Below are positions 6,561 through 34,356 of a stretch of 64,000 nt of DNA, in pieces. The notes under the pieces were generated by a model. It ran no database searches and had not been told where the DNA came from. It saw only the letters and a list, made by a program, of their open reading frames with translations. Every line of letters begins with the position of its first letter. Positions within the stretch are counted from its first letter, which is position 1. This stretch comes from Candidatus Daviesbacteria bacterium (lineage in GTDB: Bacteria > Patescibacteriota > Microgenomatia > Daviesbacterales > UBA10151), in the NCBI GenBank assembly GCA_016183305.1, contig JACPEW010000018.1:2280-66279 (forward strand), given 5' to 3'. The position numbers and the translations under genes were made by a program.

Positions 6561-6580
6561 AGGGATTAACTGTTATAATT

Positions 6581-7219: not shown

Positions 7220-7220
7220 A

Positions 7221-7626: not shown

Positions 7627-7995
7627 ATGATTGTTGGAGAACCAATCCCAAAAGAACAAACAGTAATTGAGCCTAGCACTGGGGAAAAACCAGTTATAAA
7701 AGTTGAGCCTCCCCAGGTAAGTTATGAAAAAGAAAAAAGGATTATTATATATAAAAGGATCCTCTGGTATGTTTTAAGTGTTTTAGAATCCTTACTGGCT
7801 TTTAGGTTTATAATTAAATTGCTTGGGGCAAATCCCAATAATCTATTTAGCATTTTAATAGAAATTACCACTATTCCATTTTTATTTATTTTTATTAACT
7901 TATTCCCACCAGCCTCAAGTATTACTGGCAACTTAGTTTTAGAGTGGTCAACTTTATTTGCTCTCCAGGTTTTACAAACTCAAAAAGCCAATTAA
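7627..7995 (+). CDS. YggT-family-like membrane protein
   Basis: RILWYVLSVLESLLAFRFIIKLLGANPNN resembles a YGGT repeat. Confidence 0.45.
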   Translation: MIVGEPIPKEQTVIEPSTGEKPVIKVEPPQVSYEKEKRIIIYKRILWYVLSVLESLLAFRFIIKLLGANPNNLFSILIEITTIPFLFIFINLFPPASSITGNLVLEWSTLFALQVLQTQKAN

Positions 7996-8068
7996 CCCCA
8001 AAGAAGCAGAAGATAAAGTAGAAAAAATCATGCCTTAAACTTCTTTCTTACAATACTAGGCCTATAAC

Positions 8069-8097
8069 TTGACATTTTCCTCAATATATCCTGTAAT
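8069..8097 (+). promoter_or_regulatory. Candidate sigma70-type promoter (TTGACA-17-TGTAAT)
   Basis: TTGACA lies at 8069..8074, followed by a 17-nt spacer and TGTAAT at 8092..8097. No convincing CDS lies downstream. Confidence 0.4.
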
Positions 8098-8102
8098 ACT
8101 TC

Positions 8103-8340
8103 ACTTTATGATAGCTATTGAGGCAGAAATGCCCAGATTACAACAACTAGAAACTGATAGATTGAGAACTGTTTGTAGTGGTTGCCATCCTGCTGGAAGT
8201 AAATCTAGGGAAAGATTAATATCTTCAGGACAAGTAGACCTCGTTAGAACATATGGAGGTGCAGTAGTGCCCAGCGATAAACTATGAATGAAACAAGGGC
8301 CTAATAATACTAGGGCTATTCTTGAGCAAGTACGCACCAG
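8103..8340 (+). ncRNA. Candidate structured RNA of unknown class
   Basis: This segment is locally GC-richer and non-coding-looking. It has a GGCA-GAAA-TGCC hairpin at 8122..8133 and a composite hairpin at about 8188..8230. TATGG and CCTAAT motifs resemble tetraloop-receptor halves. It was not matched to any known family. Confidence 0.3.
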
Positions 8341-8438
8341 AAATATGGTAACATTTACTAGAAGACAAAATCTGCGCCAAGCAGCTTAACTTTTTATACA
8401 GGGACCCTGGAGAATTCAGAGAAGATTTACTTAACAGA

Positions 8439-8679
8439 TTAAGCTGAAATAACTTTTTGCCCTAGTTTACCTACCCTTTTTTCTAAGTGATCATATTCTT
8501 CTCTGGTAAGAGCATCATCTTTCAGTCAATCTTTACTCTACGTCATCAATACGCCTGTTAACTTCTTAAAATCCTTTATCTACTTTCCTCTCCAACTTGT
8601 TAATTTTGCCCAGCACTTCTTGTCTAAAAGCACTTTGTCCATTGATAAGTGCCTGGAGCATTTTTTGGATATCATTCAT
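8439..8679 (-). pseudogene. Disrupted small coiled-coil protein gene
   Basis: The frame starting MNDIQKMLQALINGQSAFRQEVLGKINKLERKVDKGF ends early. The continuation (..RRIDDVE.., LKDDALTREEYDHLEKRVGKLGQKVISA) lies in other frames. Confidence 0.4.
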
Positions 8680-8796
8680 TGTTTAAGTATATACCTGTTA
8701 GATTGCTGTCTTCAATAAGTTTCTTCTGTGTCCCCAGGATCACCACTATCTAAAAATATTTTGGTTTTTAAATTATTTGGCCTCATAAATATTATT

Positions 8797-8874
8797 GTCA
8801 TCTCGAGCGATTAGCGAGAGATCTTCCGGGCTTGGAAGATTCCTCACCCCGATTTAATCGGGGTTCGGAATGAC
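8797..8874. repeat. Palindromic element copy overlapping the tkt 3' end
   Basis: GTCATCTCGAGC...GAAGATTCCTCACCCCGATTTAATCGGGGTTCGGAATGAC. The tkt stop codon lies inside the element. Confidence 0.7.
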
Positions 8875-10718
8875 AACACAGTTTTAATAATACTCTCTTT
8901 AGAAATGCCTTCAAAATCCAGTAGTTCCTCTGGTTTACCACTACCAACTATTTTCCTGACTGCCAAAGAAATAACCCTGGGTGCCAATAGATTTTCACCC
9001 CCCAGGTGGAAAAGAGCGCTTCCTACTGCTTCAGCTATCCCTCCTTCCGGGAAATGATCCTCTACCACAATAATAGCTTTAGTTTCTTTGGCTGCTTTTT
9101 TTAAAGAAGCAGTATCTACTGGCTTAATGCTATATAAATCAATAACCCTAATTAAAATCCCTTCTTTTTTAAGCTCTTCGAAAGCTGCTAAAGCCTCATG
9201 CAGGGTTATTCCAGCTCCGACTACTGTTACTAGATCCTTAGAACTCTTTTTTAAGGTTTTGCTGCCACCTATTGGGAAATCTTCATCTGGTTTGTAAAGT
9301 ATTGGGGTATCTTTTCTGGTGGTACGGATGTAAACATTGCCCTCATGTTTTGCAGCCTCTTCGGTCAACTTTTCTGTAGATATAGCATCAGAAGGGTATA
9401 AAACAACACTGTTTAACATACTTCTAAACATTGCTATATCTTCCAAGCCCATTTGGGAAGGTCCATCTTCTCCTATGGAAACACCAGCATGGGAACCACA
9501 AACTTTAATATTAGCCTCAGAATACTGGCTCATCCTGATTTGGTCATGGGCCCGGGTTAAAAAAGCTGCAAAAGTAGAGATAAAGGGGATTTTCCCTCTT
9601 CTGGATAAGCCTAAGGCTGTTCCTGCCATATTCTGTTCGGCAATATACATTTCAAAAAAATGCTCAGGATAAGCTTTGCCAAATATTTCAGCATAAGTAG
9701 AATTTCCTACTTCTGCATCCAATACCACTATATTAGGATATTGGGGAAATATTCTTGCCAGAGCATTACCATAAGCCTTTCTAGTAGCTACTTGCTCTCC
9801 TTCTTGATAATTTACTTTTGAATTTTGACTTGTAGTTTTGACCTTTGACTTTTGACCTTTGACTTTTGTTGGCTTTTCCACCTTCCCTCTAATTTTCATA
9901 TCAATATCCCCTAATTCTTGTTTTGCTTTTTCCAGCTCTTCTGTTTTTAAGGCTTTCCCGTGCCAGCCATCCTTGTTTTGCAAAAATGACACCCCTTTAC
10001 CTTTAATTGTTTTGGCAATAATCATTGTTGGTAAACCCTTGGTATTAAAAGCTTCAGTATATGCTTTAGCAATATCACTAAATGAGTGGCCATCAATGGG
10101 AATAGCGTTCCAGCCAAATGCTTTGGCCTTTTTCTCATAAGCTTTTAAATCATGGCCATACATAGTTTTCCCCCGTTGGCCTAAACCATTAACATCTATA
10201 ATGCCTATTAAGTTATCTAATTTATAATGAGAAGCAAGTTGCAAAGCTTCCCAAACAGATCCTTCTGTCATTTCACTATCTCCCAGTAAAACAAAAGTTT
10301 TATATGGCAGCTTATCTAAATACTTAGCATTTAAGGCCATTCCTAAACCAATAGAAAGTCCCTGGCCCAAAGATCCCGTAGCTGCTTCTGCGTAAGGGAA
10401 AACTGGCCTGGGATGACCCTCTAATGCGCTTCCAATTTTCCGGTAAGTAGCAAGCTCCTCATCATTAATTTTTCCAGCCAAATAAAAAAGGGAATAGAAT
10501 AAAGGAGAGGCATGGCCTTTAGAAAAGATTAACCTGTCGTTATTAGGATTACTAGGATTGTTTAAATCAGCTCTAAAAAACCCTCCAAAAAGGAGGGAAA
10601 TCATTAGGTCTGTGGCTGAAAGAGAGGATGTGGGGTGGCCAGAGCCTGCTTGGCTGCTCATCAGCAAACTTAAGTAACGGCTGGCTTTTGCAAGTTTTAC
10701 TAAATACTGCCCACTCAT
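8844..10718 (-). CDS. tkt: Transketolase, N- and C-terminal halves fused
   Basis: SGHPTSSLS, GHASPLFY, GSLGQGLS and LLGDSEMTEGSVWEA are TPP-binding motifs. The C-terminal half starts at ATRKAYGNAL. A low-complexity linker, KVKGQKSKVKTTSQNSKV, joins the halves. Confidence 0.9.
   Translation of the reverse strand: MSGQYLVKLAKASRYLSLLMSSQAGSGHPTSSLSATDLMISLLFGGFFRADLNNPSNPNNDRLIFSKGHASPLFYSLFYLAGKINDEELATYRKIGSALEGHPRPVFPYAEAATGSLGQGLSIGLGMALNAKYLDKLPYKTFVLLGDSEMTEGSVWEALQLASHYKLDNLIGIIDVNGLGQRGKTMYGHDLKAYEKKAKAFGWNAIPIDGHSFSDIAKAYTEAFNTKGLPTMIIAKTIKGKGVSFLQNKDGWHGKALKTEELEKAKQELGDIDMKIRGKVEKPTKVKGQKSKVKTTSQNSKVNYQEGEQVATRKAYGNALARIFPQYPNIVVLDAEVGNSTYAEIFGKAYPEHFFEMYIAEQNMAGTALGLSRRGKIPFISTFAAFLTRAHDQIRMSQYSEANIKVCGSHAGVSIGEDGPSQMGLEDIAMFRSMLNSVVLYPSDAISTEKLTEEAAKHEGNVYIRTTRKDTPILYKPDEDFPIGGSKTLKKSSKDLVTVVGAGITLHEALAAFEELKKEGILIRVIDLYSIKPVDTASLKKAAKETKAIIVVEDHFPEGGIAEAVGSALFHLGGENLLAPRVISLAVRKIVGSGKPEELLDFEGISKESIIKTVLSFRTPIKSG
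9811..9870. repeat. TTTGAC-type tandem repeat forming the tkt linker
   Basis: tttacttttgaattttgacttgtagttttgacctttgacttttgacctttgacttttg. Confidence 0.7.
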
Positions 10719-21706: not shown

Positions 21707-22765
21707 ATGTTAGAACCTATCTATAATATTACTTCTACCATACTTTCCCGGATTGCAGAAATTGCTGAAATAAAAGCAGCTGTGGAAAGGTCCAGGGTAC
21801 TACCTTTAAATGAAGCACAGCTCAGAAGGCAGGCAATCCTCAGGATGGCTCATACTTCTACTTCTATTGAAGGCAACAAATTAGCCCAATTTGAAGTAGG
21901 AAAAGTTTTGGAAGGTAAAACAGTCAGGGCTTCCCAAAAAGATATTTTGGAGGTAGAAAACTATTATAGTGCTTTAAAACTGTTGGATGAGCTGTCTAAG
22001 AAAAAAGGTGATATTGCTGAGCAGGAAGTTTTAAGCTTGCATAAAGCAGTAGTCAGTGGTTTAGCGGACAAGGAAAAGGTTGGTAATTTTAGACCTGCAG
22101 ATGTGTATGTGCTTGATGATCTAGGTGATGGCAGAGAGATGCTAAGATTTAAGGCCCCCCCAGCCCCGGAGGTAAAGAAATTAATAGCAGACTTATTAGA
22201 GTGGTTAAAGGAATCAAAAAAGCAAGATTTACATCCTGTGATTAGGGCAGGCATCCTACATTTACAATTTGTGACTATCCACCCTTTTACTGATGGCAAT
22301 GGCAGGGTGGCCAGATTACTCACTCAGCTCCAGTTATACAGGGATAATTGGGATTTTAGAAAGATTTTAGTTTTAGAAGATTATTATAACCGGAACAGGA
22401 TGTCTTACTATAATGCTGAAAATAAATCTCAGGGTAGAAACTATCAGAAAGATATGGATTTTACCCCGTGGTTAGAATACTTTACCACTGGGTTTTTAGT
22501 AGAAGCTAGAAAAGCTTTGGAACAAATTCAATCAATTGGTTATGGAAAAGTCAGTAAAAAGAGTGAGCAAATATTTTTGGATAGGGATGAGATTCAGATT
22601 ATGGATTTTTTAACTACCACAGGCAGAATTACTTCTGAGGATGTGGTGGATATTTTAAAGCTAGCCAAAAGAAGTGCTCAGCTTAAGCTAAAAGGATTAT
22701 TGGATAAGAAATTAATTGAATCCCAAGGTAAAGGTCCCAGTACCTATTATATTATTGCACGATAA
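21707..22765 (+). CDS. fic: Fic family protein (class II type, N-terminal inhibitory motif, C-terminal wHTH-like region)
   Basis: HPFTDGNGRVARLL is the Fic motif, and TSTSIEGN matches the (S/T)xxxE(G/N) inhibitory helix. Confidence 0.9.
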   Translation: MLEPIYNITSTILSRIAEIAEIKAAVERSRVLPLNEAQLRRQAILRMAHTSTSIEGNKLAQFEVGKVLEGKTVRASQKDILEVENYYSALKLLDELSKKKGDIAEQEVLSLHKAVVSGLADKEKVGNFRPADVYVLDDLGDGREMLRFKAPPAPEVKKLIADLLEWLKESKKQDLHPVIRAGILHLQFVTIHPFTDGNGRVARLLTQLQLYRDNWDFRKILVLEDYYNRNRMSYYNAENKSQGRNYQKDMDFTPWLEYFTTGFLVEARKALEQIQSIGYGKVSKKSEQIFLDRDEIQIMDFLTTTGRITSEDVVDILKLAKRSAQLKLKGLLDKKLIESQGKGPSTYYIIAR

Positions 22766-23956: not shown

Positions 23957-24038
23957 GCTGGTGTGGTGGAATGGCATACACGCTCGCCTTAAGAGCGAGT
24001 GCCCAAAAGGCATAAGGGTTCGACTCCCTTCACCAGCA
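23957..24038 (+). tRNA. tRNA-Leu (anticodon TAA)
   Basis: Acceptor GCTGGTG/CACCAGC, anticodon loop CTTAAGA, a long variable arm and T-loop TTCGACT. Confidence 0.9.
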
Positions 24039-24048
24039 CTTTATATTA

Positions 24049-24213: not shown

Positions 24214-24486
24214 TTATTCCTTACTGGGGGAGTATTTTATCCAGGTTTTTTTGATAAAGGGTAAAGTTAGGGTAGATAATAAAAAAGCTATACTGGGTAT
24301 AATAGCATTTAGCCAAGGCCTATCAATATTTATTGAATTCATATAAAAACCAACTGCCAAATAAGTAAAGAGGGCAATTACAAATTTTCTAGTCCAGCTT
24401 GTTTCCCAGGCTTTATCTTTTTCTACTTTTTTGTTTCTTCCCTCAATTGTAGATATTCTTTGTCCTAACTCTTCTAAGCTACTCAT
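24214..24486 (-). CDS. Small membrane protein
   Basis: 90 aa with two hydrophobic helices. Its start overlaps the pyrD stop by 4 nt. Confidence 0.45.
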   Translation of the reverse strand: MSSLEELGQRISTIEGRNKKVEKDKAWETSWTRKFVIALFTYLAVGFYMNSINIDRPWLNAIIPSIAFLLSTLTLPFIKKTWIKYSPSKE

Positions 24487-25607
24487 ACTTCATATCTTAG
24501 CATACCTACTGCCTGGGAGATATTGGTATAACCATCTTTTTTAAGGAGCTTAACTAAGCCTTGGTTGATTTCAGAAATTAGTTGTGGGCCCTGGAAGATC
24601 ATGCCTGTAATTAGTTCTACTAAAGAAGCCCCTAATTTAATCTTTCTATAAGCATCTTCTGCTGAAAATATCCCCCCCACTCCAATAATAATATATTTAC
24701 CCTTGGTTTTTTGGTAGATCCTTTGGATTTGATGGTTAGATAATTGCTCAACCAGCTTACCGCTCAGTCCCCCATCTTTTGGCACTACCCTATCAGAAAT
24801 TTTGTTTGTCCTGGGTTTAGTTAGATTTGAGCAGGTAAAACCATCTATCTTGTGTTTTTTAACAACTTCTAAAATTTTATCAAGCTGGTTATCAGTTAAA
24901 TCAGGAGGCATTTTAATAAAAATAGGTTTTTTAGTAGGAATTTTAGTAATTTGTTTTAATAGTACATCTAGTTTTTGTGGATCAGAAAAAGGCAAGCCTC
25001 CATAAGCATTTGGGCAGCTGATATTTATCTCAAAAATATCCCCAATACCAGTAAAATATTGATAGGCTTTAACATAATCTTTTATACCAGCATCTATCTC
25101 AACAGTACCAAGGCTATTGGTTTTACCAATGCTGGTAATAACAGGAAAAGCAAAATCTTTTCCTTGTAGCCTTTTAGAAATTCTTTCAGCTCCATCATTT
25201 TTTAAGCCATAATTTACTATCAAACTTCTAGAGTTTTTTAATCTCCAGAGCCTGGGCCTGAGATTACCCTTACAAGCCTCACCAGTTATAGTCCCTATTT
25301 CAGCAAAGCCAAAACCAACTGAAGGTAAAATATTAGTCAGTCTGGCATCTTTATCAAATCCAGCAGATAAACCAACAGGATTTTTAAATTTTATCCCTAA
25401 GATTTTCTGTTCCAAAGCAGGATGGGAATAAGAAAATAATAAGCTGGTTAGCTTTCTGGTTAAGCTATTACCCCCCAAAAACCTACCTGCCAAAGTCATA
25501 CCACCATGAATATTCTCAGGTTCAACTAAAAAGAATAAAGGCTTTAATAGGTTTTTATAACAAAAGCTTAATATTCTATTCCTTAGAAAAACAATAACTT
25601 CAATCAT
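24483..25607 (-). CDS. pyrD: Dihydroorotate dehydrogenase (quinone-type, class 2)
   Basis: NPVGLSAGFDKDA, FEINISCPNA, GGLSG and IGVGGI motifs. Confidence 0.85.
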   Translation of the reverse strand: MIEVIVFLRNRILSFCYKNLLKPLFFLVEPENIHGGMTLAGRFLGGNSLTRKLTSLLFSYSHPALEQKILGIKFKNPVGLSAGFDKDARLTNILPSVGFGFAEIGTITGEACKGNLRPRLWRLKNSRSLIVNYGLKNDGAERISKRLQGKDFAFPVITSIGKTNSLGTVEIDAGIKDYVKAYQYFTGIGDIFEINISCPNAYGGLPFSDPQKLDVLLKQITKIPTKKPIFIKMPPDLTDNQLDKILEVVKKHKIDGFTCSNLTKPRTNKISDRVVPKDGGLSGKLVEQLSNHQIQRIYQKTKGKYIIIGVGGIFSAEDAYRKIKLGASLVELITGMIFQGPQLISEINQGLVKLLKKDGYTNISQAVGMLRYEV

Positions 25608-25665: not shown

Positions 25666-25740
25666 GCGGGATTAGTTCACCGGTAGAACGACTGCTTTCC
25701 AAGCAGTATGTAAGGGGTTCAATTCCCCTATCCCGCTCCA
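25666..25740 (+). tRNA. tRNA-Gly (anticodon TCC), CCA encoded
   Basis: Acceptor GCGGGAT/ATCCCGC, anticodon loop TTTCCAA, T-loop TTCAATT and a terminal CCA. Confidence 0.9.
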
Positions 25741-26016
25741 GACGAATTTTATCGAACTGACAACTTTTAACTTCGAAAAGTTGATAAAATTAGTCAAAAT
25801 TCGATCCTATAACCTTATACCCTAACGGGAATCGAACTAGCCACAAATTCGCTATCTCTTATCTTGCTTAGACTCTTCAAAACCACCCATCCATTCTGAC
25901 CCATAAAAATGCGTCATAACTGCGCATGCCAGCAAATATACCACTTCCTGTATTTCCCTTAGTTCATCTTCTGATGAATTAGGATAATATTTTCTAATCA
26001 CATCAAGTGGTAGCAT
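25741..26016. repeat. Module left-end repeat, copy A (homologous to 28041..28315)
   Basis: The two copies share (A)TCGAACT..., ...CCCTAACGGGAATCGAACTAGCC... and a conserved 54-aa reverse ORF. Confidence 0.7.
25852..26016 (-). CDS. Conserved 54-aa protein, copy 1
   Basis: ATG preceded by a GGAGG site. It encodes MLPLDVIRKYYPNSSEDELREIQEVVYLLACAVM... and is a paralog of 28151..28315. Confidence 0.45.
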   Translation of the reverse strand: MLPLDVIRKYYPNSSEDELREIQEVVYLLACAVMTHFYGSEWMGGFEESKQDKR

Positions 26017-26067
26017 AGTAAACACTCACCTCCTCATCTACTGCAAGAAGTAAATTTTACTCAACAA

Positions 26068-26409
26068 ATGTATGCACTGGTTTTTAGAACCTGCGGAAAA
26101 TGCAAAAAAGAGAAAATTATGATATTATACAGTTCTATGGATCGTAGAAGAATTGAGCATATAACTGCTGCTTTAGCCGTATCACTCCTGTTTATTATGA
26201 CAATCGGTGCTATATTGGCGATTGCCAACACAATGTTTAATTGGGATATTTTCCCTCCTAATGTTGAGAAAGTGCTTTGGTTTCTCTTAGCCTCACTTTT
26301 GGCAATTATTGTTTCATCTGTTTTGGTTAACGTAATGATAAATTTAAGTATTATCGCCCTAAACTCTGAACGCCTTTTGAATCACAAAAAAGATTCCTAT
26401 GAGGAATGA
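26068..26409 (+). CDS. Membrane protein, unknown function
   Basis: Two or three TM helices. The start is uncertain (alternative MILYSSMD). Confidence 0.4.
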   Translation: MYALVFRTCGKCKKEKIMILYSSMDRRRIEHITAALAVSLLFIMTIGAILAIANTMFNWDIFPPNVEKVLWFLLASLLAIIVSSVLVNVMINLSIIALNSERLLNHKKDSYEE

Positions 26410-26962
26410 AAACCACGACTTGAAATTTTCTCAACCCCTAATTGTTTTAGCAATATTTGTACTTATAATAGCAGTGCTGATTATGATATTTTCCTCAATA
26501 AGCCAGGCAAGGAAAGATTCTATATACCAAACCTATGCTGTAGAAACCGCACAATACATCAACCAAAACCAACCCCAGCTAGCTACCCTTTTTAATGATA
26601 TGTTTCCTAAAACTGAATGTATTATTAATAGGCAACAGAATATTCCGTGTGCCTTCCCAAATCAGGAGGCAATTGCTCGTCTCCTTCCTTCTAGTCTGAA
26701 AGATTGGAGTTCAACTGCTTTTATCAAAGAAGGCGGCGAAAGAATTTTGATGATGCGTTTATCTGGTGATACTAAAGAACTTTATGTTTATCCAGAGCAA
26801 AAACGCCTACAGTTGCAAAAACTACTCAGAGGAGAAACTACAAAAATCGGATGGGATGATTATACTTACGAATTGATGGGGAAAGAAGTTGTTATTGCTG
26901 TCAAAGATAGCAACGGAAAGGTCATTGGTGCAATTATGCGATCGGTTATCGAAGTACAGTAA
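26399..26962 (+). CDS. Single-pass membrane protein with extracytoplasmic sensor-like (PDC/Cache-like) domain
   Basis: N-terminal TM helix, with a C-terminal ...GKEVVIAVKDSNGKVIGAIMRSV pattern. The domain call is tentative. Confidence 0.4.
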   Translation: MRNENHDLKFSQPLIVLAIFVLIIAVLIMIFSSISQARKDSIYQTYAVETAQYINQNQPQLATLFNDMFPKTECIINRQQNIPCAFPNQEAIARLLPSSLKDWSSTAFIKEGGERILMMRLSGDTKELYVYPEQKRLQLQKLLRGETTKIGWDDYTYELMGKEVVIAVKDSNGKVIGAIMRSVIEVQ

Positions 26963-26990
26963 CTATTATTGCTTTCTGTAAAAGATCACT

Positions 26991-27827
26991 TTATTTTAAA
27001 GGTTTCTTACCTTTCTTTTTGGGCAAATAATTTTGTGAGGTTATCACCTTCTTCCTGGTTTCCTTTTCAAGGTTAGACCTGGCATCTCCTGCAATTTTAC
27101 CACCACGCTTTGATACTCGTTTATTTCTCTCAAACCCTTTGGGGTGTTCTGTTTTGGTAATCTCTGTGGTTGCAGCTTCACCAAGCTGGGAAAATAAAAG
27201 CTCCAAATCACTCATATGATCACGGAGGTTTTCTCTCTTTAGGTTTTTAATTTTTTTATGTTCTGATGGAGTAACACCAAACGTGGCTCTGGATATTTCA
27301 GCTGTTAATATCTCATACTCTTTTGCTAGCTCTACTCCATGTTTTTGCCACTGGTCAGTCAATTCCTCGCTTATCGCAATAGAGCGCATGCGTCTTTCAA
27401 TCCAATCTTCTGGATATCCTTTGGCTTTATAAAGTGCCCTGGCTCGCTTTTGGGCTAACTCTGGGTCTTCTATCTCCTGTACCCTTTCATATCCGACTTT
27501 AGCTAACCATCTTTTAAAAGGCTCTGCTTTTGGTGAAGGTATAGATTGGATAATTCTAAAAATGCCTTCAGTATTTGCGCAATTTACTTTTTGTGCTCCA
27601 CCTGTAGTTTCAATTGAAAGGGGGGTGGCAATTTGCCCCCACCCTTTGAAAAGTTCCGGATCACGCCTACGCATATCCTTAATATACCCATCTGGCTGAA
27701 CTGAATCTGTTAAAGCAACCACAACATCAACGATTACAAACCACCACTCATTTTTATGAATAGTTTTTCTTATTTTCCTATTCCGGAAAATCGCTATTTT
27801 AGTTATTTGGGTTACTTCTTGATTCAT
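26991..27827 (-). CDS. Bro-N domain protein (DinD-like), copy 1
   Basis: IFRNRKIRKTIHKNEWWFVIVDV...ANTEGIFRIIQSIPSPKAEPFKRW is a Bro-N pattern, followed by a DinD-like helical C-terminal half. Confidence 0.75.
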   Translation of the reverse strand: MNQEVTQITKIAIFRNRKIRKTIHKNEWWFVIVDVVVALTDSVQPDGYIKDMRRRDPELFKGWGQIATPLSIETTGGAQKVNCANTEGIFRIIQSIPSPKAEPFKRWLAKVGYERVQEIEDPELAQKRARALYKAKGYPEDWIERRMRSIAISEELTDQWQKHGVELAKEYEILTAEISRATFGVTPSEHKKIKNLKRENLRDHMSDLELLFSQLGEAATTEITKTEHPKGFERNKRVSKRGGKIAGDARSNLEKETRKKVITSQNYLPKKKGKKPLK

Positions 27828-27924
27828 ATTAATTAAAAATTGTTATTGCACTTTATTGTACATAAAAACCCCATAATTACCAAGAGTTAAGGAAGGAAAA
27901 ATTTGTTCATGTCTGAATCAGAGA

Positions 27925-28040
27925 ATTTTTTATAACTAAATTAGGCTCCAATTCGTATAAAAAATCTGGTAAAATAGGATTTGAGTTAAATTCTTGGATG
28001 AATCCTGGCAGTCTGGCTAAGATCACGTCAGGAGCTCCAG
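27925..28040. repeat. Module right-end repeat (truncated copy of the 32609..32803 ORF region)
   Basis: The reverse frame reads SGAPDVILARLPGFIQEFNSNPILPDFLYELEPNL. The copy ends at the GAGCTCCAG junction. Confidence 0.65.
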
Positions 28041-28315
28041 AAAAAAAGATCGAACTTTACAAGTTTTAGCTTCAGAAACACATAAAAATCTATCAAAATT
28101 TAGACTTATAACTTTGAACCCTAACGGGAATCGAACTAGCCTTGGTGGAGTTACTTTTTCTCTTGTTCAACCTCTTCAGAATCTCCCGTCCATTCTAACC
28201 CATAAAACTCTTGCATAACTGCGCATGCCAGCAAATATACCACTTCTTGTATCTCTTTTAGTTCTTCTTCTGAAGCATTAGGATAATACTTTTTGATAGT
28301 CTTTAATGGCAACAT
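28041..28315. repeat. Module left-end repeat, copy B
   Basis: It aligns with 25741..26016, including the 54-aa ORF. Confidence 0.7.
28151..28315 (-). CDS. Conserved 54-aa protein, copy 2
   Basis: It encodes MLPLKTIKKYYPNASEEELKEIQEVVYLLACAVM.... Its ATG overlaps the TAA stop of the upstream aminotransferase ORF (TAATG). Confidence 0.45.
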   Translation of the reverse strand: MLPLKTIKKYYPNASEEELKEIQEVVYLLACAVMQEFYGLEWTGDSEEVEQEKK

Positions 28316-29124
28316 TATGTCCTTTCTTTTAACAGAACCAAAATTTCATCTACTACTTGGATAAACTTTTCATTAACTGTTTTTAACCTAGGACTTACTC
28401 TCACGAAATTTGTACATAAACCATTAAAATTGATTCCATCAACTATTGAAGGATCGGCAACGCAAAAACCAATTCTCAAACCGGCAAGTCCAAAACCTTT
28501 TGAGAAAGTTCTTAAAACAATCAAATTATCTATGTTCTGACATTCCCTTATAACTGTTTCTCCGCCGAACTCAATATTTGCTTCATCAACTATAACCAAA
28601 ATGTCTGTTGAGCGAACAAAATCTAAAATTGTATCTTTAGAGATAATATTACCTGTTGGATTATTGGGATTGCATAAAACAATTAGCTTGGTATTTTTAG
28701 TTATTCGCTTTCTTATATCAGTTAGGTCTATATCAAAGTCTGCTGTCATTTCCGACAAAACAACTTTACCACCTACAATCTGTACTGCTTTTTCGAACAT
28801 TGGAAATGTCAGTTTGGGTATTATCACTTCATCATTAGGTTTCAGGATAGCCTGTGGTAGAAGTTTAATAATAGCTTCAGAACCATTGGCCACTAAAATA
28901 CCTTCGGGATTTATCCGAAACATTTTAGATATGGTATTTTTAAGATCCTTTGAATCAGGATCGGGGTAATCAAAGAAATCCTTTAGCGAGATATCTTTTA
29001 AGGCCGTAACAACCTTAGGCGAGCAACCTAATGGATTTTCGCTTAACGAAAGATTAATCGGTAATTTCTCACCAAAAGCATATAACTTTCTAAAACTAAC
29101 TTGTGTCTGTATTGTGTTATTCAT
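28315..29124 (-). CDS. Class I/II aminotransferase (HisC-like), apparently shortened
   Basis: LSENPLG, NPNNPTG, DEANIEF and RTFSKGFGLAGLRIGF are present, but the region after the PLP-lysine segment is about 70 aa shorter than typical family members. It may be a decaying gene. Confidence 0.55.
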   Translation of the reverse strand: MNNTIQTQVSFRKLYAFGEKLPINLSLSENPLGCSPKVVTALKDISLKDFFDYPDPDSKDLKNTISKMFRINPEGILVANGSEAIIKLLPQAILKPNDEVIIPKLTFPMFEKAVQIVGGKVVLSEMTADFDIDLTDIRKRITKNTKLIVLCNPNNPTGNIISKDTILDFVRSTDILVIVDEANIEFGGETVIRECQNIDNLIVLRTFSKGFGLAGLRIGFCVADPSIVDGINFNGLCTNFVRVSPRLKTVNEKFIQVVDEILVLLKERT

Positions 29125-29136
29125 AGTTTCTCCCAC

Positions 29137-29160
29137 AAAAAAACCTCCCATTTCGGGAGG
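29137..29160 (-). terminator. Leader terminator/attenuator hairpin just upstream of the aminotransferase start
   Basis: On the minus strand a CCTCCC-GAAAT-GGGAGG hairpin is followed by a 7-nt U-run, 13 nt before the ATG at 29124. An upstream GGGAGG (29209..29214) can form an alternative pairing. Confidence 0.5.
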
Positions 29161-29351
29161 ATGTAAAATAATTCCGTTTTACCTACTATTAAACCACGAA
29201 ATTACCAACCTCCCTAAGAGAGGAATGATGCCAATAATAAGCATTGGTAGATTTCGTAGTTATAAAGGGATTGTAACACAAGCCCACAGAGTTTTCCTAA
29301 AAATGATCTGTTTTGACCACAAGGATCAATTTTTGTGCTAAGATAAATTGA

Positions 29352-29876
29352 GTGAACGCAGAATTAAAGAAACTTACCAAAGGGAAAGTAGCTGTTTTTA
29401 TTGATGCAGCCAATTTAGAGCTTTCAGCAAAAGACAGAGGGTGGAAGGTAGATTATAGAAAACTTTATAAGTGGTTAAAGGAAGCGGATCAACTAAAATA
29501 TCTCGGATTCTTTACGGTTCGTTTTGATAACAAATCCCACGATGCTTTTCTGACTATTCTCAAAAAGACAGGATACAAACTTGTTACCAAACCACTAAAA
29601 GTCATCAAAAACAAGTCAAAAGCTGGTCATACCAGAAAAGCTAATTTTGATGTAGAGATTGCAGTTGAGGCTATGAAGCAGATAGATTCTTTTGATACTA
29701 TGATACTTTTCTCCGGCGATAGCGATTTTGACTACCTTCTCAAGGAACTGAAAGGGGGAAATAAAAAGGTTATCGTAGTATCTACGAAATATCACATTTC
29801 CAGAGAATTGATAAAGAGGGCAGATACTTATATTGATTTAAGGAAGATTAGGAAGCTAATTGAAAGAAGGCCATAA
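29352..29876 (+). CDS. NYN domain (LabA-like) protein
   Basis: VAVFIDAANL, KANFDVEIAVEAM and LFSGDSDFDYL form the PIN-like NYN signature. Confidence 0.8.
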   Translation: MNAELKKLTKGKVAVFIDAANLELSAKDRGWKVDYRKLYKWLKEADQLKYLGFFTVRFDNKSHDAFLTILKKTGYKLVTKPLKVIKNKSKAGHTRKANFDVEIAVEAMKQIDSFDTMILFSGDSDFDYLLKELKGGNKKVIVVSTKYHISRELIKRADTYIDLRKIRKLIERRP

Positions 29877-29884
29877 AAAAGCCC

Positions 29885-29910
29885 GTCTTTTGCAACGGGC
29901 GGTTGATAAC
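29885..29910 (-). terminator. Hairpin with a U-run on the minus strand
   Basis: A GCCCGT...ACGGGC stem has its T-run only in minus-strand orientation. It probably terminates the truncated fragment at 30007..30117. Confidence 0.4.
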
Positions 29911-30006
29911 AATCTGTTTCCAGACTGCAAAAGAATTTTACTAAAGTATAGTAAGAATGTCAATGACCTATAGCCTAAAATCCAAAACAAAGTTTATTAT
30001 GCATAC

Positions 30007-30117
30007 TTATACATTTTTTAGACCTAAAGCATAAACTAAATCCGTTAAAAGTTCGTCAGATAGGAATAATCTGATAAACTTTGGCAGTCTGGCTAAGATC
30101 ACGTCAGGAGCTCCAGA
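30007..30117 (-). pseudogene. Third, truncated copy of the module right-end ORF
   Basis: The reverse frame reads SGAPDVILARLPKFIRLFLSDELLTDLVYALGLKNV-stop. The N-terminus is cut at the GAGCTCCAG junction. Confidence 0.5.
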
Positions 30118-30245
30118 GTAAAATTTAGGTTCGCAACAGGTCTGATTTGTACTAATTTTATCAATCCCACTCTCGAATCAGGTCCGATTACCCTCTCTGT
30201 TATAATTTATTTGCTTTTCAACAATATAAGATATAAAATAAGATC

Positions 30246-30614
30246 GTGAAACGGGAATTATCAGTTGCAGGACTCTCTTTATTGGGTGTCATACAATTAG
30301 TATATATACCTTATGCCATAGTGACACTAACACAATCTTTAAAGTGGAACTGGGATAGAGGGTTAGCAAATTCTTCATTTGTCAGAAATGGTGATTTAGC
30401 AGGATATATTTTGTCCTATATTGCATTTATAGTTCTATCTATTTTTGTATATAAAGATTTTAAAATTGTTCATAAGCTGATAGCAGCCAAGGATCATAAA
30501 CATTATTTAAAATCAGGCTTTTTGTTATTTGTTGAAAATATGATAGCAATTGTTGTTTTTGCGGCCGCTTTCCTTGCATTACTTTGGTACCACTGTCAAA
30601 AAGTTTATTGCTAG
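30246..30614 (+). CDS. Membrane protein, unknown function
   Basis: 122 aa with four hydrophobic helices and a GTG start. Confidence 0.4.
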   Translation: MKRELSVAGLSLLGVIQLVYIPYAIVTLTQSLKWNWDRGLANSSFVRNGDLAGYILSYIAFIVLSIFVYKDFKIVHKLIAAKDHKHYLKSGFLLFVENMIAIVVFAAAFLALLWYHCQKVYC

Positions 30615-30796
30615 ATGATTCTTGAGTAGGTGCAATTGAAAAGCTAATAGTTTTGCTTCCTCGTTTTGATCATTAAATAACTTTTTAAGTCCGACCCTAA
30701 TACCGTCTCCAGCTCCATGAGGCTTAGATTGTTTGGACAAACTAAGCTAAAATTATCTCAACTGGTATTAATTGAACGTTAGAGAGTCTTTTTTGG

Positions 30797-31405
30797 TTAT
30801 GGCATTCCGCCGCAATACACATATTTATGAAGGATACCTGAATCACCAGAAGTTGCATCTATAAATATGCGATTATTCGTAGAACAAGCTCCAATTTCCC
30901 AATACCATCCACCATTTTGGAGCTTAAGAGTATTTTTATTCTCAAGATAACCCGTACCTATACCAGGTATATCAGCAGAAGAACCTTTGAGTAATCCAAT
31001 GCTAATGTCTGTTTCGCCAGCACTTGTGGTTGCCACGTTATATTTACGAGCTAATTCAAGTTTAATCTTTGGAGTAAATATATCTTGGTAACAGTTATCA
31101 TAATAATGACACTCCTTAACTTTATTCTCTATTTTAAGTTCGCTATAGATTTTAGTTAAATCCGTCGTACTATTTTTATTATTAAGCTCATCTTTTAAGG
31201 AAGCTACATTTTGAATGATTGGAACTTGAGACGACGTAGAAGTTGATATTTCAGGTACTGACTGAGATTTAAAATCCGAGGACGGATTAAATTTCTGTAC
31301 TAAATCATACTTTTTAATTACAAAGGATCCTCCAATAATTCCACCAGACATTAATAAAATTACTATAATAAAGATTAATGGAGCAAAACCTTTATCCTTG
31401 AGCAT
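30797..31405 (-). CDS. N-terminally anchored secreted protein, Cys-containing C-domain
   Basis: KGFAPLIFIIVILL anchor, a Ser/Thr-rich linker and a C-terminal domain with 5 Cys. Confidence 0.4.
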   Translation of the reverse strand: MLKDKGFAPLIFIIVILLMSGGIIGGSFVIKKYDLVQKFNPSSDFKSQSVPEISTSTSSQVPIIQNVASLKDELNNKNSTTDLTKIYSELKIENKVKECHYYDNCYQDIFTPKIKLELARKYNVATTSAGETDISIGLLKGSSADIPGIGTGYLENKNTLKLQNGGWYWEIGACSTNNRIFIDATSGDSGILHKYVYCGGMP

Positions 31406-31563
31406 TAATTGTATCTTATCATAGAAGCTTTAAAGTAGCACATGGACTTACCCCTGTTGAGTGTGATGACATCTTTCGAAATGATTTTTCAAAATCTCGA
31501 GTTGATAAGCAAGTAATTTAGCTTCATCAGAACCATCATTAAACAGGTTGTCGAGTACGCCTG

Positions 31564-31601
31564 AAATCCCCTCACCCGCTCCAAACGAATTTTATCGAAC
31601 T
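31564..31601 (+). repeat. att-like junction: degenerate tRNA-Gly 3' end plus module left-end sequence
   Basis: AAATCCCCTCACCCGCTCCA-AACGAATTTTATCGAACT here compares with AATTCCCCTATCCCGCTCCA-GACGAATTTTATCGAACT at 25721..25758. Confidence 0.7.
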
Positions 31602-31650
31602 CGTGAATTTTAGCTTCATAAAGTTGATGAAACTTTTATCATTTCTATTT

Positions 31651-32490
31651 CTATTTCTTTAATAATTTTCTGCTTTGTTTTTTGGGCAAATAGTTTTGTG
31701 AGGTTGTTACTTTTCTGCCGGTTTCTTTCTCAAGATTAGATCTGGCATCTCCGGCAATTTTACCACCACGTCTTGAAACTTGTTTATTTTTCTCAAACCC
31801 TTTGGGATGTTCTGTTTTGGTAATTTCTGTGGTTACTGCTTCGCCAAGCTGAGAGAATAAAAGTTCTAAATCATTCATGTGATCACGCAGATTCTGACGT
31901 TGGAGTCCTTTTATTTTCTTGTATTCAGATGGTGTTATACCAAAAGTGGCTTTAGATATCTCGGCAGTTAGTATCTCATACTCTTTTGCAAGTCCTACAC
32001 CGTGTTTTTGCCACTGCTCTGTCAATTCCTCCCTGATGGCAATAGAACGCATCCGTCTTTCAATCCAGTCTTCAGGGTAGCCTTTCGCTTTGTAAAGGGC
32101 TCTTGCTCTCTTTTGTGCTAATTCCGGGTCTTCTATCTCCTGCACCCTTTTATATCCAACCTTAGCTAACCATCTCTTAAAAGGTTCTGCTTTTGGGGAA
32201 GGAATAGATTGGATAATCCTAAAAATACCTTCAGTATTTGCACATCTTACCTTCTGTTTTCCTCCTGTAGTTTCTATCAAAAGGGGGTGTTCAATTTGAA
32301 CCCACCCTTTAGCCAATTCTTTATCCCGGTTGAGCATATTTTTTAGGTATTGCTTGGGGTTTTGTGAATCTGTTAAGGCTTCGATTACATCAATAATTAC
32401 AAACCACCATTCATTTTTATGGATAGTTTTCCTGATTTTTCTATTTCGAAAGATCGCTATTTTAGTTATTTGGGTTATTTCTTGAGCCAT
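31651..32490 (-). CDS. Bro-N domain protein (DinD-like), copy 2
   Basis: It is collinear with 26991..27827 and roughly four-fifths identical by eye. Confidence 0.75.
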   Translation of the reverse strand: MAQEITQITKIAIFRNRKIRKTIHKNEWWFVIIDVIEALTDSQNPKQYLKNMLNRDKELAKGWVQIEHPLLIETTGGKQKVRCANTEGIFRIIQSIPSPKAEPFKRWLAKVGYKRVQEIEDPELAQKRARALYKAKGYPEDWIERRMRSIAIREELTEQWQKHGVGLAKEYEILTAEISKATFGITPSEYKKIKGLQRQNLRDHMNDLELLFSQLGEAVTTEITKTEHPKGFEKNKQVSRRGGKIAGDARSNLEKETGRKVTTSQNYLPKKQSRKLLKK

Positions 32491-32608
32491 AAATTTCTTA
32501 CTTTAATGTTTATATTACAATACTTAATTAAAAATTGTTGCTATACTTTATTATACGTAGAAAACCCGTAACAACAAGTAATTAAGGTAGACAAAAAATA
32601 GCCTATCA

Positions 32609-32803
32609 TTAAATTAATGAATGTTTCAAAGCTAAATTAGATTCTAATTCATATAAAAAATCTGGTAAAATGGGGATAGAGTTAAATTCTTGGATAAATC
32701 CTGGCAGTCTGTGTAACAGTACATCAGGAGCTCCAGGCGGGGCAGTGTCCCCAGAAAAGTCACGAATATATTGATACAACGGGCTAATCAAGATAGTCTT
32801 CAT
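32609..32803 (-). CDS. 64-aa protein spanning the rightmost junction (full-length version of the truncated right-end ORFs)
   Basis: It encodes MKTILISPLYQYIRDFSGDTAPPGAPDVLLHRLPGFIQEFNSIPILPDFLYELESNL. Two 5'-truncated copies lie upstream in the array. Confidence 0.35.
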   Translation of the reverse strand: MKTILISPLYQYIRDFSGDTAPPGAPDVLLHRLPGFIQEFNSIPILPDFLYELESNLALKHSLI

Positions 32804-32882: not shown

Positions 32883-32935
32883 TTGTCAATTATATTGACA
32901 AATAACTTGACAATTATAATTGTTCTTTATATAAT
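32883..32935 (+). promoter_or_regulatory. Near-consensus promoter with palindromic operator upstream of fic-2
   Basis: The palindrome is TTGTCAA-TTATA-TTGACAA (32883..32901). TTGACA lies at 32907..32912, followed by a 17-nt spacer and TATAAT at 32930..32935. The ATG at 32942 is 6 nt after the -10 element, which suggests a leaderless mRNA. Confidence 0.6.
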
Positions 32936-32941
32936 TAAGGT

Positions 32942-33952
32942 ATGTTTAAACCAAAATATACTCTAATTCCCGAAATCCTCAATAATATTAATGAAATAGA
33001 AAGGCTTTATGGACGACTTGAGGGTTTAACTATTCCCCAGCATCTTTTATTAAATCTTGAACGGGATAATTTAATCCAATCTGTATATGTTTCAAATAGC
33101 ATTGAAGGGAATCCACTCTCTCAAGCAGAAGTTACCAACCTATTATTAAATGGTAGGGTACCGGTTAATCGGGATGAAAAAGAGGTTGTTAATTACTTTA
33201 AAATTTTAAAAACTCTTCATAAAAGAATTGGACAACCTTTTGATCTTAATATTATTCTTGATATTCATAAGGAGTTGATGGAAGCGGTTAATGATAAAAT
33301 CAAAGGTAAAATTCGAAATAAACAAATAGTGATAGGTAATTATGGTGAAGATAATAAAATTATTATTAAACATAATCCTCCGTTTCATACATATTTAGAA
33401 ATAGAGCAGTCTCTTAAGAAACTTTTGAATTGGATTCAAGATAGCGCTGAACCATCTATTTTAAAAGCAGGATTGTTTCATCATCAATTTGTCTTTATTC
33501 ATCCGTTTGAGGATGGTAATGGAAGAGTGTGCAGGTTATCAATGGCACTATTTTTATTAAAAAATAAATATCTTATTAATAAGTACTTTGTTCTTGATGA
33601 TTACTATGATATTGATAGACAACAGTATTCAGATAAATTACATACTGCTGATTTTGGTGATAAGACAGAATGGCTGGAGTATTTTACAAATGGAGTGAAA
33701 TATTCATTACAAAGCGCGCTTGGAAAAATTGAATCAGGACTTACCAAACTTACGTTTGATATTCGTCCAACTCCTAAAGAACAGGAAGCGTTAGAGATAA
33801 TACAAAAGTATAAAGAAATTAATTCCGCTGATTTAGTAAAAGAGCTGAATATAACAAGACAACAGGCATTCAATCTTTTAAGAGCGCTTGTAAAAAAAGG
33901 TTATCTTGAAAAAAAAGGCAGCACGAAAAGTAGTTTTTATATTTTGAAATAA
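32942..33952 (+). CDS. fic: Fic family protein (class II type)
   Basis: HPFEDGNGRVCRLS Fic motif, the VSNSIEGN inhibitory motif and a C-terminal wHTH-like tail. Confidence 0.9.
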   Translation: MFKPKYTLIPEILNNINEIERLYGRLEGLTIPQHLLLNLERDNLIQSVYVSNSIEGNPLSQAEVTNLLLNGRVPVNRDEKEVVNYFKILKTLHKRIGQPFDLNIILDIHKELMEAVNDKIKGKIRNKQIVIGNYGEDNKIIIKHNPPFHTYLEIEQSLKKLLNWIQDSAEPSILKAGLFHHQFVFIHPFEDGNGRVCRLSMALFLLKNKYLINKYFVLDDYYDIDRQQYSDKLHTADFGDKTEWLEYFTNGVKYSLQSALGKIESGLTKLTFDIRPTPKEQEALEIIQKYKEINSADLVKELNITRQQAFNLLRALVKKGYLEKKGSTKSSFYILK

Positions 33953-33963
33953 TAGCCGGCATA

Positions 33964-34356
33964 ATGAAACTTACACAGAGGCAGAGAGATAAATTATGGG
34001 GAGAAGACGGACCGTATTCTGAAGTTCATTTGATAATTGAAACGAGAATACTTGATGATCGGGAAGCCAGAAAATTTGTGATTGTTGAGCTTAATGTCAA
34101 CCCTTTGAGTTTTGAAATTCTTAAAAAGAATCGTAAGCAATTTGAAGATGATTTACTAATCCTGGAATTAATAGATCATGCTGAATATCGGGGACAATCA
34201 TTTGGTTATGTTGCTTGTGCGTATATTCATGAATATAATAATTCATCAATTCTTGTTGAAGCAGAAGAACATGCTGAATATTCAAAGAAAGCTTTAATTA
34301 AAATCCATAAATATGTGATGGATTTTTTAGGGATAAAATCTTCAAAAGCAAGGTAA
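33964..34356 (+). CDS. Hypothetical protein co-oriented with fic-2
   Basis: 130 aa with no recognisable motif. It starts 12 nt after the fic-2 stop. Confidence 0.4.
   Translation: MKLTQRQRDKLWGEDGPYSEVHLIIETRILDDREARKFVIVELNVNPLSFEILKKNRKQFEDDLLILELIDHAEYRGQSFGYVACAYIHEYNNSSILVEAEEHAEYSKKALIKIHKYVMDFLGIKSSKAR

Follow-up and report, generated by a model that had tools for sequence, protein, structure and literature searches.

We examine here the region downstream of a tRNA-Gly(TCC) gene in a 64-kb stretch of DNA from a Daviesbacteria contig (called the window below, with a GC content of ca 35%; all coordinates are positions in the whole stretch). We will argue that positions 25741-32736 are probably an accretion array, in which five non-autonomous cassettes have been stacked by site-specific recombination at the 3′ end of the tRNA gene. 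The bacteria of the candidate phyla radiation (CPR), to which this host belongs, are uncultured and have genomes of ca 1 Mb; gene exchange among them is little known, and few recognisable mobile elements have been described.

The array is placed between the intact tRNA gene, on which ARAGORN and Rfam agree, and an apparent original downstream flank. An earlier annotation made from the letters alone (the sequence-only reading) had already taken this gene as the anchor, and this holds: its 3′ end, ..CCCGCTCCA, forms an attL-like junction with the first module, which begins directly after it at 25741. The core GCTCCA, identical to the tRNA 3′ end, is found at all junctions, ending at 25740, 28039, 30115, 30717, 31583 and 32735. 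The wider core common to all of them is GCTCCA(G/T)A, and the shared GCTCCA(G/T)A(C/G)G amounts to some 8-10 base pairs (bp), the identity sought between attP and attB of large-serine-recombinase elements being short (2 to ca 12 bp), with a central dinucleotide, in sites of 40-50 bp.

The right ends of the modules recur far above chance. The right end of 34 nucleotides (nt), GGCAGTCTGGCTAAGATCACGTCAGGAGCTCCAG, is exact at 28007-28040 and 30083-30116 (chance expectation 0), and the copy ending at 32736 is a diverged relative of it. CAGGAGCTCCAG is present only at 28040, 30116 and 32736, which makes three matches against 0.18 expected from shuffles, and a degenerate pattern spanning all three copies gives three hits in the window against none expected. 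The earlier claim that a conserved right-end segment closes on the core at these three positions is thus borne out.

At the left ends, the stretch 25721-25789 (the last 20 nt of the tRNA and 49 nt downstream) is 81% identical to 31564-31632, and the 17-mer ACGAATTTTATCGAACT is exact in both. This confirms the proposed degenerate copy of the tRNA 3′ end at 31564..31583, a tRNA-like copy of 17-20 nt ending at 31583, and also the recurrence of the post-tRNA sequence at 31584. The recurrence claimed at 28041 holds in part, since the first 18 nt after 28041 differ and 25760-25998 aligns with 28059-28297 at 75-82%. A longer repeat joins a Bro-N gene to its right end (26995-28040 compared with 31658-32736, ca 80% identity). 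Up to four modules had been proposed, but ..AATACCGTCTCCAGCTCCA forms an additional right end at 30717, a homologue of the right end at 31583. The segment 30117-31583 is thereby split, and the array consists of five head-to-tail modules: 25741-28040, 28041-30116, 30117-30717, 30718-31583 and 31584-32736. The GC content of the island is the same as that of its surroundings.

The features are listed below, where L-block and R-block denote the repeats at the left and right ends of the modules, ORF is an open reading frame, aa stands for amino acids, and the evidence is given in brackets.

25666..25740, plus strand: tRNA-Gly(TCC), intact (ARAGORN; Rfam tRNA, 66.7 bits).
25741..26028, plus strand: L-block 1, the left end of module 1, with GACGAATTTTATCGAACT, an imperfect hairpin of ca 55 nt, a second ATCGAACT box at 25820-25842 and a 57-aa ORF (repeat families; alignment of 39 L-blocks; fold z-score).
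25852..26025, minus strand: conserved small ORF of L-block 1, 57 aa (25 copies in related loci).
26068..26962, plus strand: unique cargo of module 1, ORFs of 113 and 187 aa with sub-threshold Pfam hits only (ORF list, Pfam).
26991..27827, minus strand: Bro-N / DinD-like protein of module 1, 278 aa (Pfam Bro-N, 8e-12; phrog_15286, 2e-84; PADLOC PDC-S13, 1.2e-109).
27907..28040, minus strand: R-block 1 (type A), orphan serine-integrase 3′ end reading GAPDVILARLPGFIQEFNSNPILPDFLYELEPNLVIKNSLIQT and then a stop, with the frame read from 28038 and the block ending at the core GCTCCA followed by G (coding signature; C-terminus of the L099 integrase discussed below).
28041..28318, plus strand: L-block 2, the left end of module 2 (repeats, L-block alignment).
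28151-28315, minus strand: 54-aa ORF in L-block 2.
28315..29151, minus strand: hisC-like aminotransferase of module 2, C-terminally truncated and probably a pseudogene (Pfam Aminotran_1_2 covers positions 4-242 of 361; NCBIfam hisC covers 16-232 of 349, with a score under the cut-off).
29352..29876, plus strand: NYN-domain nuclease of module 2, 174 aa (Pfam NYN, 1.6e-29; PADLOC NYN, 1.4e-15, and HEC-09, 1.3e-08).
30007..30116, minus strand: R-block 2 (type B), orphan integrase 3′ end reading GAPDVILARLPKFIRLFLSDELLTDLVYALGLKNV and then a stop, its last 34 nt identical to those of R-block 1 (repeat and coding evidence).
30117..30717, plus strand: module 3a, with no L-block (right-end homology).
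30246-30614, plus strand: 122-aa ORF of module 3a.
30670-30717: type D right end of module 3a, ending ..AATACCGTCTCCAGCTCCA.
30718..31583, plus strand: module 3b (repeats, right-end homology).
30797-31405, minus strand: 202-aa ORF of module 3b.
31536-31583: type D right end of module 3b, whose last 17 nt, TCCCCTCACCCGCTCCA, are the tRNA-Gly 3′ end of other genomes (loci L112 and L116).
31584..31650, plus strand: truncated L-block of module 4 (AACGAATTTTATCGAACTCGTGAATTTTAGCTTC..), without the small ORF (repeats, L-block alignment).
31651..32490, minus strand: Bro-N / DinD-like protein of module 4, 279 aa, 85% identical to the module 1 copy (Pfam Bro-N, 2.6e-15).
32609..32736, minus strand: R-block 4 (type A), orphan integrase 3′ end reading GAPDVLLHRLPGFIQEFNSIPILPDFLYELESNLALKHSLI and then a stop, the last junction of the array (pattern matches, open frame).
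32737..32803, minus strand: right flank beginning GCGGGGCAG (resembles the post-tRNA-Gly sequence of locus L081).
32609-32803, minus strand: 64-aa fusion ORF, made of 23 flank codons with an ATG and R-block 4 in frame.

Pfam agrees with the cargo named by the sequence-only reading (Bro-N twice, NYN, and a decayed aminotransferase, which is indeed truncated). Look-ups of window proteins by exact sequence gave no record.

We now turn to the nature of the right ends. On the minus strand, reading from the core, the R-block encodes GAPDV(I/L)L(A/H)RLP(E/G)FI.. in every copy, and in ca 50 copies the frame has no stop over 35-45 codons, insertions of 33 and 36 nt staying in frame. The third codon positions have about twice the entropy of the first and second, and of the codon differences a fraction of 0.47-0.50 is synonymous in this frame, compared with 0.08-0.35 in the other five. 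Blocks of types A and B are unrelated-looking in their upstream DNA and homologous in the peptides that they encode. The R-blocks of modules 1, 2 and 4 are thus minus-strand coding sequence. At internal junctions, where an L-block follows, the frame closes upstream within a median of 3 codons, so that the encoded peptide (the R-peptide) is not an independent gene there, whereas at terminal junctions, without an L-block, the frame stays open for a median of 24 codons. The type D ends at 30717 and 31583 read GAG(D/E)GI.. in the same frame, and a comparison by hand of the 30717 end with its homologue in locus L093 finds five of the seven nucleotide differences to be synonymous in the minus-strand frame GAGDGIRVGLKKLFND.

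Another view of the R-block, as a small or tRNA-like RNA, was tried and rejected. Rfam has no hit to it (at E<=1 the only hits are the tRNAs), its fold z-scores are -0.3 to -2.3, and its variation follows codon periodicity; a CCTGGC/GTCAGG stem is broken without compensation in several copies.

The gene from which this coding sequence derives is seen in a related contig, L099, in which the R-frame is open for 536 codons. Positions 2157-3884 of L099 encode an intact protein of 575 aa, ending ..KGNS followed by GAPDVLLHRLPEFIKEF.., with matches to Pfam Resolvase (1.4e-13) and Recombinase (9.5e-8) and to the phrog_95 integrase family (2.2e-40). Its last 43 residues are the R-peptide, which places the att core, TGGAGC, inside a large serine integrase gene, 43 codons before the stop. 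The R-blocks match the last 35-45 codons of this large serine recombinase (LSR) gene up to the core, in the window in modules 1, 2 and 4 only, and locus L103 retains ca 20 integrase-like codons upstream of the core.

A second integrase shows the catalytic side. In the Doudnabacteria contig CAWINB010000004.1 (L079, 4965-6595), a serine recombinase split into ORFs of 177 and 355 aa reads directly into the 3′ end of a tRNA-Gly(GCC) gene (6550-6477, minus strand), an indication that another CPR class also has integrases of this type with the tRNA-Gly 3′ end as their target. No far end of this element was found within 6.4 kb of sequence.

These observations point to the following mechanism. An autonomous element would carry attP inside the 3′ end of its own integrase gene, and integration at tRNA-Gly would cut this gene at the core. 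The catalytic part would then lie beside the tRNA and read into it, while the tail of 35-45 codons would come to adjoin the flank, at the opposite end of the element. The arrangement in L079 is the first half of this predicted integrated state. The cassettes of the window would have kept the tail as the R-block and would have the L-block on the left in place of the integrase, the catalytic part having been lost or never present; they would be a serine-integrase counterpart of cis-mobilizable elements (CIMEs), for which an autonomous relative, perhaps phage-like or plasmid-like, would have to provide the integrase in trans. Homologous recombination between the junction repeats of 0.25-0.4 kb would also add, remove, duplicate and reshuffle cassettes. 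Since each R-block would record a functional integrase gene as it was when insertion took place, coding-type variation among the R-blocks is expected.

Such a partitioned gene has a parallel in the SSV1-type integrases of Sulfolobus viruses, where attP lies inside the integrase ORF and integration at a tRNA splits the gene to the ends of the provirus. Those enzymes are tyrosine integrases and the small piece is N-terminal, whereas here the enzyme is a serine integrase and the small piece is the C-terminal 35-45 codons. To our knowledge, an integrase gene partitioned by its own attP has been described only for the SSV type, and one search of the literature gave no natural serine-integrase case.

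It should be pointed out that the array itself encodes no recombinase of this kind. The sequence-only reading had noted that integrase, excisionase and replication genes are absent, and Pfam and PHROGs scans of the island ORFs find no such family either. With the L099 and L079 proteins as queries, no catalytic part of a serine recombinase is found in the window (six-frame segments of at least 40 aa, E<=10; the positive control worked), and among 57 related loci the same queries find none except L099 itself and a fragment in L116 beside a tRNA-Leu gene. The Pfam gene tables for 10 kb on either side of five other arrays hold no recombinase, and an integrase is found in none of the ca 50 arrays seen. 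A screen of the window for tyrosine recombinases was also negative; it passed its positive control and yet, applied to serine recombinases, missed the L099 integrase, so that little weight is put on it. A protein with both Resolvase and Recombinase domains is encoded only by contig L099, and since the window holds no LSR, its units are not classed as autonomous LSR elements. Of the three fates that had been proposed for the modules, decay and mobilisation in trans are retained, while an unrecognised recombination function becomes unnecessary, the R-block being the 3′ end of a serine recombinase gene.

The L116 fragment (3336-3707, minus strand; 124 aa, 4.7e-22 to the L079 serine recombinase) abuts tRNA-Leu(TAA) and may be a remnant of another element at a neighbouring tRNA. 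The tRNA-Leu(TAA) of the window, at 23957-24039, has no such fragment. As for L099, its integrase is preceded by a 534-aa ORF with a P-loop-like GLTGTGKT motif and by a 100-aa ORF overlapping the integrase start (together 154-2160). After it, at 4428-9525, come a methyltransferase, a GT4 glycosyltransferase and ORFs of 113, 577 and 138 aa without a family hit, the 577-aa ORF having repeats of the K(Y)AVKTTPSAK type. The contig has no terminal overlap indicating a circle, and it may come from a phage-like or plasmid-like element.

The R-peptide was also searched against 5.8 billion proteins; this search, which is word-indexed and does not return the L099 integrase itself, finds only ORFs of 39-76 aa. 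Their N-termini come from the sequence right of the junction, and one of them is the 64-aa ORF of the window. Upstream of that ORF a Shine-Dalgarno-like AGAGGAAA is seen by eye. Fusion ORFs homologous to it are present in at least three other genomes (P0248, P0250 and P0251), with N-termini ..ISP(L/I)YQYI.(D/G)FSG.T.P.

We next consider the L-block. Besides its two ATCGAACT boxes it contains the hairpin, with a DNA fold z-score of -3.9, and a small ORF of 54-57 aa with the family consensus MLPLExIKKYYPNASEEELKEIQEVVYLLACAVMQHFYGS.WMG... The protein falls into 145 protein clusters, with source names that are all Microgenomates lineages or unclassified. The 54-aa protein has no Pfam or PHROG match, and a profile search of 1.8 billion representative proteins finds short relatives only. 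It is not similar to the 100-aa ORF upstream of the L099 integrase. Its AlphaFold2 model (predicted local distance difference test score, pLDDT, of 83) consists of a short helix and a long one. A TTTTTAGCTTCA..AA.TTG motif is common to the L-block and the integrase gene, at a similar distance from the core, which weakly points to descent.

Related arrays were reached in two ways, through Bro-N homologues in other Daviesbacteria genomes and with a degenerate R-block pattern, first validated on the window, which gave 48 metagenome loci. In a viral collection neither the R-block nor the L-block has a match, and the L099 integrase has no relative there. With the R-block setting the orientation, the loci share one architecture, namely tRNA-Gly followed by units of L-block, cargo and R-block, one after the other. 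A tRNA-Gly gene (TCC, CCC or GCC) in the same orientation precedes the first R-block, with no other tRNA between, in 21 loci (ca 16 non-redundant). These are 21 of the 23 loci in which a tRNA-Gly or more than 3 kb upstream is visible; two lack it. In the ca 16 other Microgenomates genomes or contigs, the same junction repeats thus follow tRNA-Gly with different cargo, and the occupancy of the site varies from one to five or more modules. Module sizes range from 0.6 to 7.7 kb across loci, and cargo is almost never repeated between them.

All right-end types stop abruptly at GCTCCA. The sequence beyond is of four kinds: an L-block at 18 distinct junctions, a GACGGGGCA-type sequence at 4, another tRNA gene at 2 and unique DNA at 21. 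The right boundary of the window array, GCTCCAG followed by GCGGGGCAG, resembles the post-tRNA-Gly sequence of locus L081, GCTCCA followed by GACGGGGCAG, and L081 itself has a single-gene module of 0.7 kb between copies of a 19-nt direct repeat, CCCGCTCCAGACGGGGCAG. This is the pattern expected from insertion between the tRNA and its native flank.

Modules also change place. One module, with a methyltransferase-like and a Bro-N gene, comes directly after the tRNA in L089 and after an R-block in L088, with homology starting exactly at GCTCCA. Another, with an S66 peptidase, is first in L116 and has a later place in L125, where it follows the R-block of another module, and in L136; L116 and L125 are 98-100% identical over this module and the right flank. 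The common core, the tRNA-Gly genes upstream of the repeats in related loci, this change of place, the whole-module differences between strains of 98-100% identity and the lack of a recombinase in the window support the proposal of repeated site-specific integration at one att site of tRNA-Gly. A further array, in the Daviesbacteria contig JACPKL010000005.1 (L083, 1800-3911), is at tRNA-Lys(TTT). It has an L-block, two 56-aa ORFs and a Bro-N gene, and its R-block ends in CGGCTCA, the tRNA-Lys 3′ end, in place of GCTCCA. In this single case the att core would thus track the target tRNA. An end ..AAGCTGCTCA, similar to the CGGCTCA end of L083, is seen inside the tRNA-Gly(CCC) arrays of L112 and L114.

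The same comparisons bear on whether the region could be ancestral and non-mobile, its repeats being regulatory or terminator elements duplicated along with paralogues. A Bro-N gene beside tRNA-Gly is conserved in several Daviesbacteria, and the equal GC content of island and surroundings fits this as well, but almost every genome has other genes between the repeats, whole modules distinguish near-identical strains, and the repeats contain a fragment of an integrase gene. We consider this explanation highly improbable. Relatives differ in gene order and the junctions align highly significantly, the two points on which the sequence-only reading had said that it could fail.

A more serious competitor is homologous recombination alone, in which DNA taken up from relatives would replace or add cassettes by crossing over in the tRNA gene and in the junction repeats, no site-specific recombinase would act on the cassettes at present, and the integrase tails would be old scars. 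Exchange of this kind has left its traces. Between L116 and L125 the first ca 170 nt right of the core are 74-82% identical and the sequence beyond is ca 100% identical, a step that indicates exchange by homologous recombination at a breakpoint inside the L-block, away from the core. The locus L121 and the contig L097+L130, 99% identical, have one and two copies of a unit of L-block, ABC transporter and R-block, and such a tandem duplication of the whole unit fits unequal crossing-over. The core-proximal haplotypes GGCTAAGATCAC and TGTAACAGTAC are shuffled between R-blocks of types A and B, and the lack of an integrase near the arrays is also as this explanation would have it. Homologous recombination alone cannot, however, make new repeat-bounded cassettes, and it leaves unexplained the sharp ends at the tRNA CCA, the 17-20-nt copies of the tRNA 3′ end (at 31583 and in L081) and the switch of the core to CGGCTCA at tRNA-Lys. 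Moreover, the R-block frames are nearly all still open, which argues for young or repeatedly renewed tails. As a full account of the array we find it unlikely.

Another option considered was an integron-like capture platform with its own unrecognised recombinase, in which the sequence from R-block through core to L-block would act like attC and the 54-aa protein, Bro-N or the R-peptide would belong to the machinery. As in integron arrays, many cassettes are small, often with one gene or a few, their boundaries share a conserved recombination sequence, and there is one anchor site. A conserved hairpin lies beside the crossover, and the terminal R-peptide frame is fused to an ORF with a start codon in several loci (the median of 24 against 3 codons given above), which recalls attI leader ORFs. 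Unlike in integrons, however, no IntI-type tyrosine recombinase is found in the window, and the junctions have no attC and no GTTRRRY core; no attC-type palindrome spans the junction (z-scores of +0.3 to -2.8, the window copy folding no better than shuffles), the genes point in both directions, and promoter regions of their own are present in many cassettes. The R-peptide is accounted for by the L099 serine integrase. The Bro-N protein has only its N-terminal Bro-N domain modelled with confidence, its C-terminal half consists of helices with a pLDDT of ca 42, no solved relative was found, and the gene is missing from most cassettes. The integron-like platform is therefore very unlikely in our view, and the junction as attC and Bro-N as a hidden recombinase were both rejected. 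Ends of the IS200/IS605 type (palindrome-associated transposable elements, PATE) were likewise rejected: the two ends are unlike each other, the pairing of the right hairpin is not conserved, and no HUH gene is among the cargo.

Stacking of cassettes by a serine integrase at tRNA-Gly thus remains the probable reading, and several points weigh against it. L099 is the only intact integrase with this tail that was found, and its contig has no tRNA, so that a free element and an internal array junction are both possible. Right of the core, the homology between L-block and integrase gene is confined to one motif of ca 20 nt. Modules 3a and 3b have neither R-block nor L-block, and are attributed to the same recombinase from their tRNA-like ends alone. 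Neither a circular junction nor an empty site was observed: no fully empty tRNA-Gly site was recovered among the related loci, and a search for one through the flanking dihydroorotate dehydrogenase gene led to a best genome relative of 61% identity, with no close synteny. Finally, canonical phage serine integrases recombine attP with attB only, and attL with attR needs a directionality factor (PMC5737554; bioRxiv 10.1101/2025.05.02.651858). For insertion to be repeated beside an occupied tRNA, and for single internal cassettes to move, the choice of sites would have to be relaxed in the manner of the Ccr/Dsi type, or another route taken.

The internal junctions of R-block and L-block are attP-like, as opposed to the attL-like junction of tRNA and L-block. 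A bolder proposal is that the arrays are an active Microgenomates gene-capture platform at tRNA-Gly, with mini-cassettes moved in trans by the serine integrase of a phage-like or plasmid-like element that has attP in the 3′ coding end of its own gene, tandem insertion or excision rebuilding the integrase, and the lineage-specific 54-aa protein serving as directionality factor. Integration would then trim the integrase by ca 43 residues, and its rebuilding would be a switch for directionality or copy control. We offer this tentatively and regard it as doubtful.

Among described systems, the island arrays at ssrA in Dehalococcoides appear to be the closest case. There, tandem islands follow a small-RNA gene, the 3′ end of which recurs as a short direct repeat at the borders of each island; autonomous units carry a serine recombinase of ca 540 aa on the reverse strand next to attL, and some units without the integration module have been proposed to be cis-mobilizable (PMC3146451). 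The present arrays differ in their target (tRNA-Gly, and tRNA-Lys in one relative) and hosts (CPR Microgenomates), in their much smaller units, in having the att core inside the integrase ORF, so that cassettes end in an open tail of 35-45 codons, in the conserved 54-aa gene at the left end, and in the lack of an integrase in any array seen. The CIMEs of the ICESt1/ICESt3 family have lost integration and transfer genes, keep attL and attR and form tandem accretions behind a target gene, at its 3′ end (PMC5704250). The window units likewise have no integrase, excisionase or transfer genes and keep att sites at both ends. CIMEs are, however, defined for the tyrosine-recombinase lineages of integrative and conjugative or mobilizable elements (ICE/IME) in Firmicutes, and the cassettes here, with an LSR as recombinase, are a diversified lineage with shared ends, not one-off decay products. 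In the tycheposons of Prochlorococcus, successive integration at one tRNA pushes older elements inward and leaves partial tRNA copies between the units; the host genomes are streamlined, and defence and niche genes are among the cargo (bioRxiv 10.1101/2020.12.28.424599). Tycheposons carry their own integrase, mostly of the tyrosine type, usually with a replication module, whereas the window units have neither. What sets the present arrays apart is the host clade, the tRNA-Gly target, the very small cassettes, the in-frame integrase tail and the 54-aa gene; tandem accretion at a small-RNA gene was already known.

We finally turn to the cargo. The Bro-N proteins match the candidate single-gene defence family PDC-S13 of PADLOC over their full length. 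Their homologues number more than 8000, and Bro-N accounts for 12 of the tallied cargo ORFs, most cassettes being without it. Just right of the array lies a SoFic-like Fic gene (PADLOC SoFic, 1.9e-51). In related arrays, PADLOC finds SIR2 and a Snf2/HKD helicase with a type IIG restriction-modification enzyme; ABC exporters, a sugar-modification operon and, judged from sequence only, HigB-like and helix-turn-helix ORFs are also present. Matches of the kind expected in a defence island are thus those to PDC-S13, NYN and the adjacent SoFic, and the other cargo is metabolic or without a family. The array is thus a variable island of accessory and candidate defence genes.

Some features in and around the array may be mentioned. 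The Fic-domain gene (336 aa) and a following 130-aa ORF occupy 32942-34356, behind a consensus sigma-70 promoter (32907-32935). Another ORF, grouped with the Fic gene by BLASTP, is at 21707-22765, left of the tRNA cluster, and Fic-like genes also adjoin the arrays in L081, L100 and L136. In the region of the type B R-block of module 2, a near-consensus promoter (TTGACA, 17-nt spacer, TAAAAT) at 29935-29963 on the minus strand points left, toward a terminator at 29881-29900 after the NYN gene, and looks like a stranded relic of an earlier cargo arrangement. The dihydroorotate dehydrogenase gene (24483-25607, minus strand) is just upstream of tRNA-Gly. Its best species-representative relatives, 61% identical, are named Peribacteria, Saccharibacteria or Paceibacterota, not Microgenomates, a pattern that may stem from horizontal acquisition or from poor sampling.

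In the databases, the 54-aa protein and the R-peptide ORFs are mostly found on contigs of less than 3 kb. It appears from this that metagenome assemblies routinely break at the junction repeats, and the arrays are probably under-represented in binned CPR genomes. The repeats would account for assembly breaks at these places, and the R-block pattern is a simple marker for mining the cargo of the cassettes. The evidence names an enzyme family, the large serine integrases, together with concrete attachment sequences that are open to synthesis and testing, and serine integrases with a new specificity for tRNA ends and attP inside their own gene are potential tools for genome engineering. For the biology of these bacteria, the locus is a sequence-defined hotspot at which several Microgenomates lineages exchange small cassettes of defence and accessory genes, the source names of the loci including Daviesbacteria, Levybacteria, Gottesmanbacteria and Woesebacteria.

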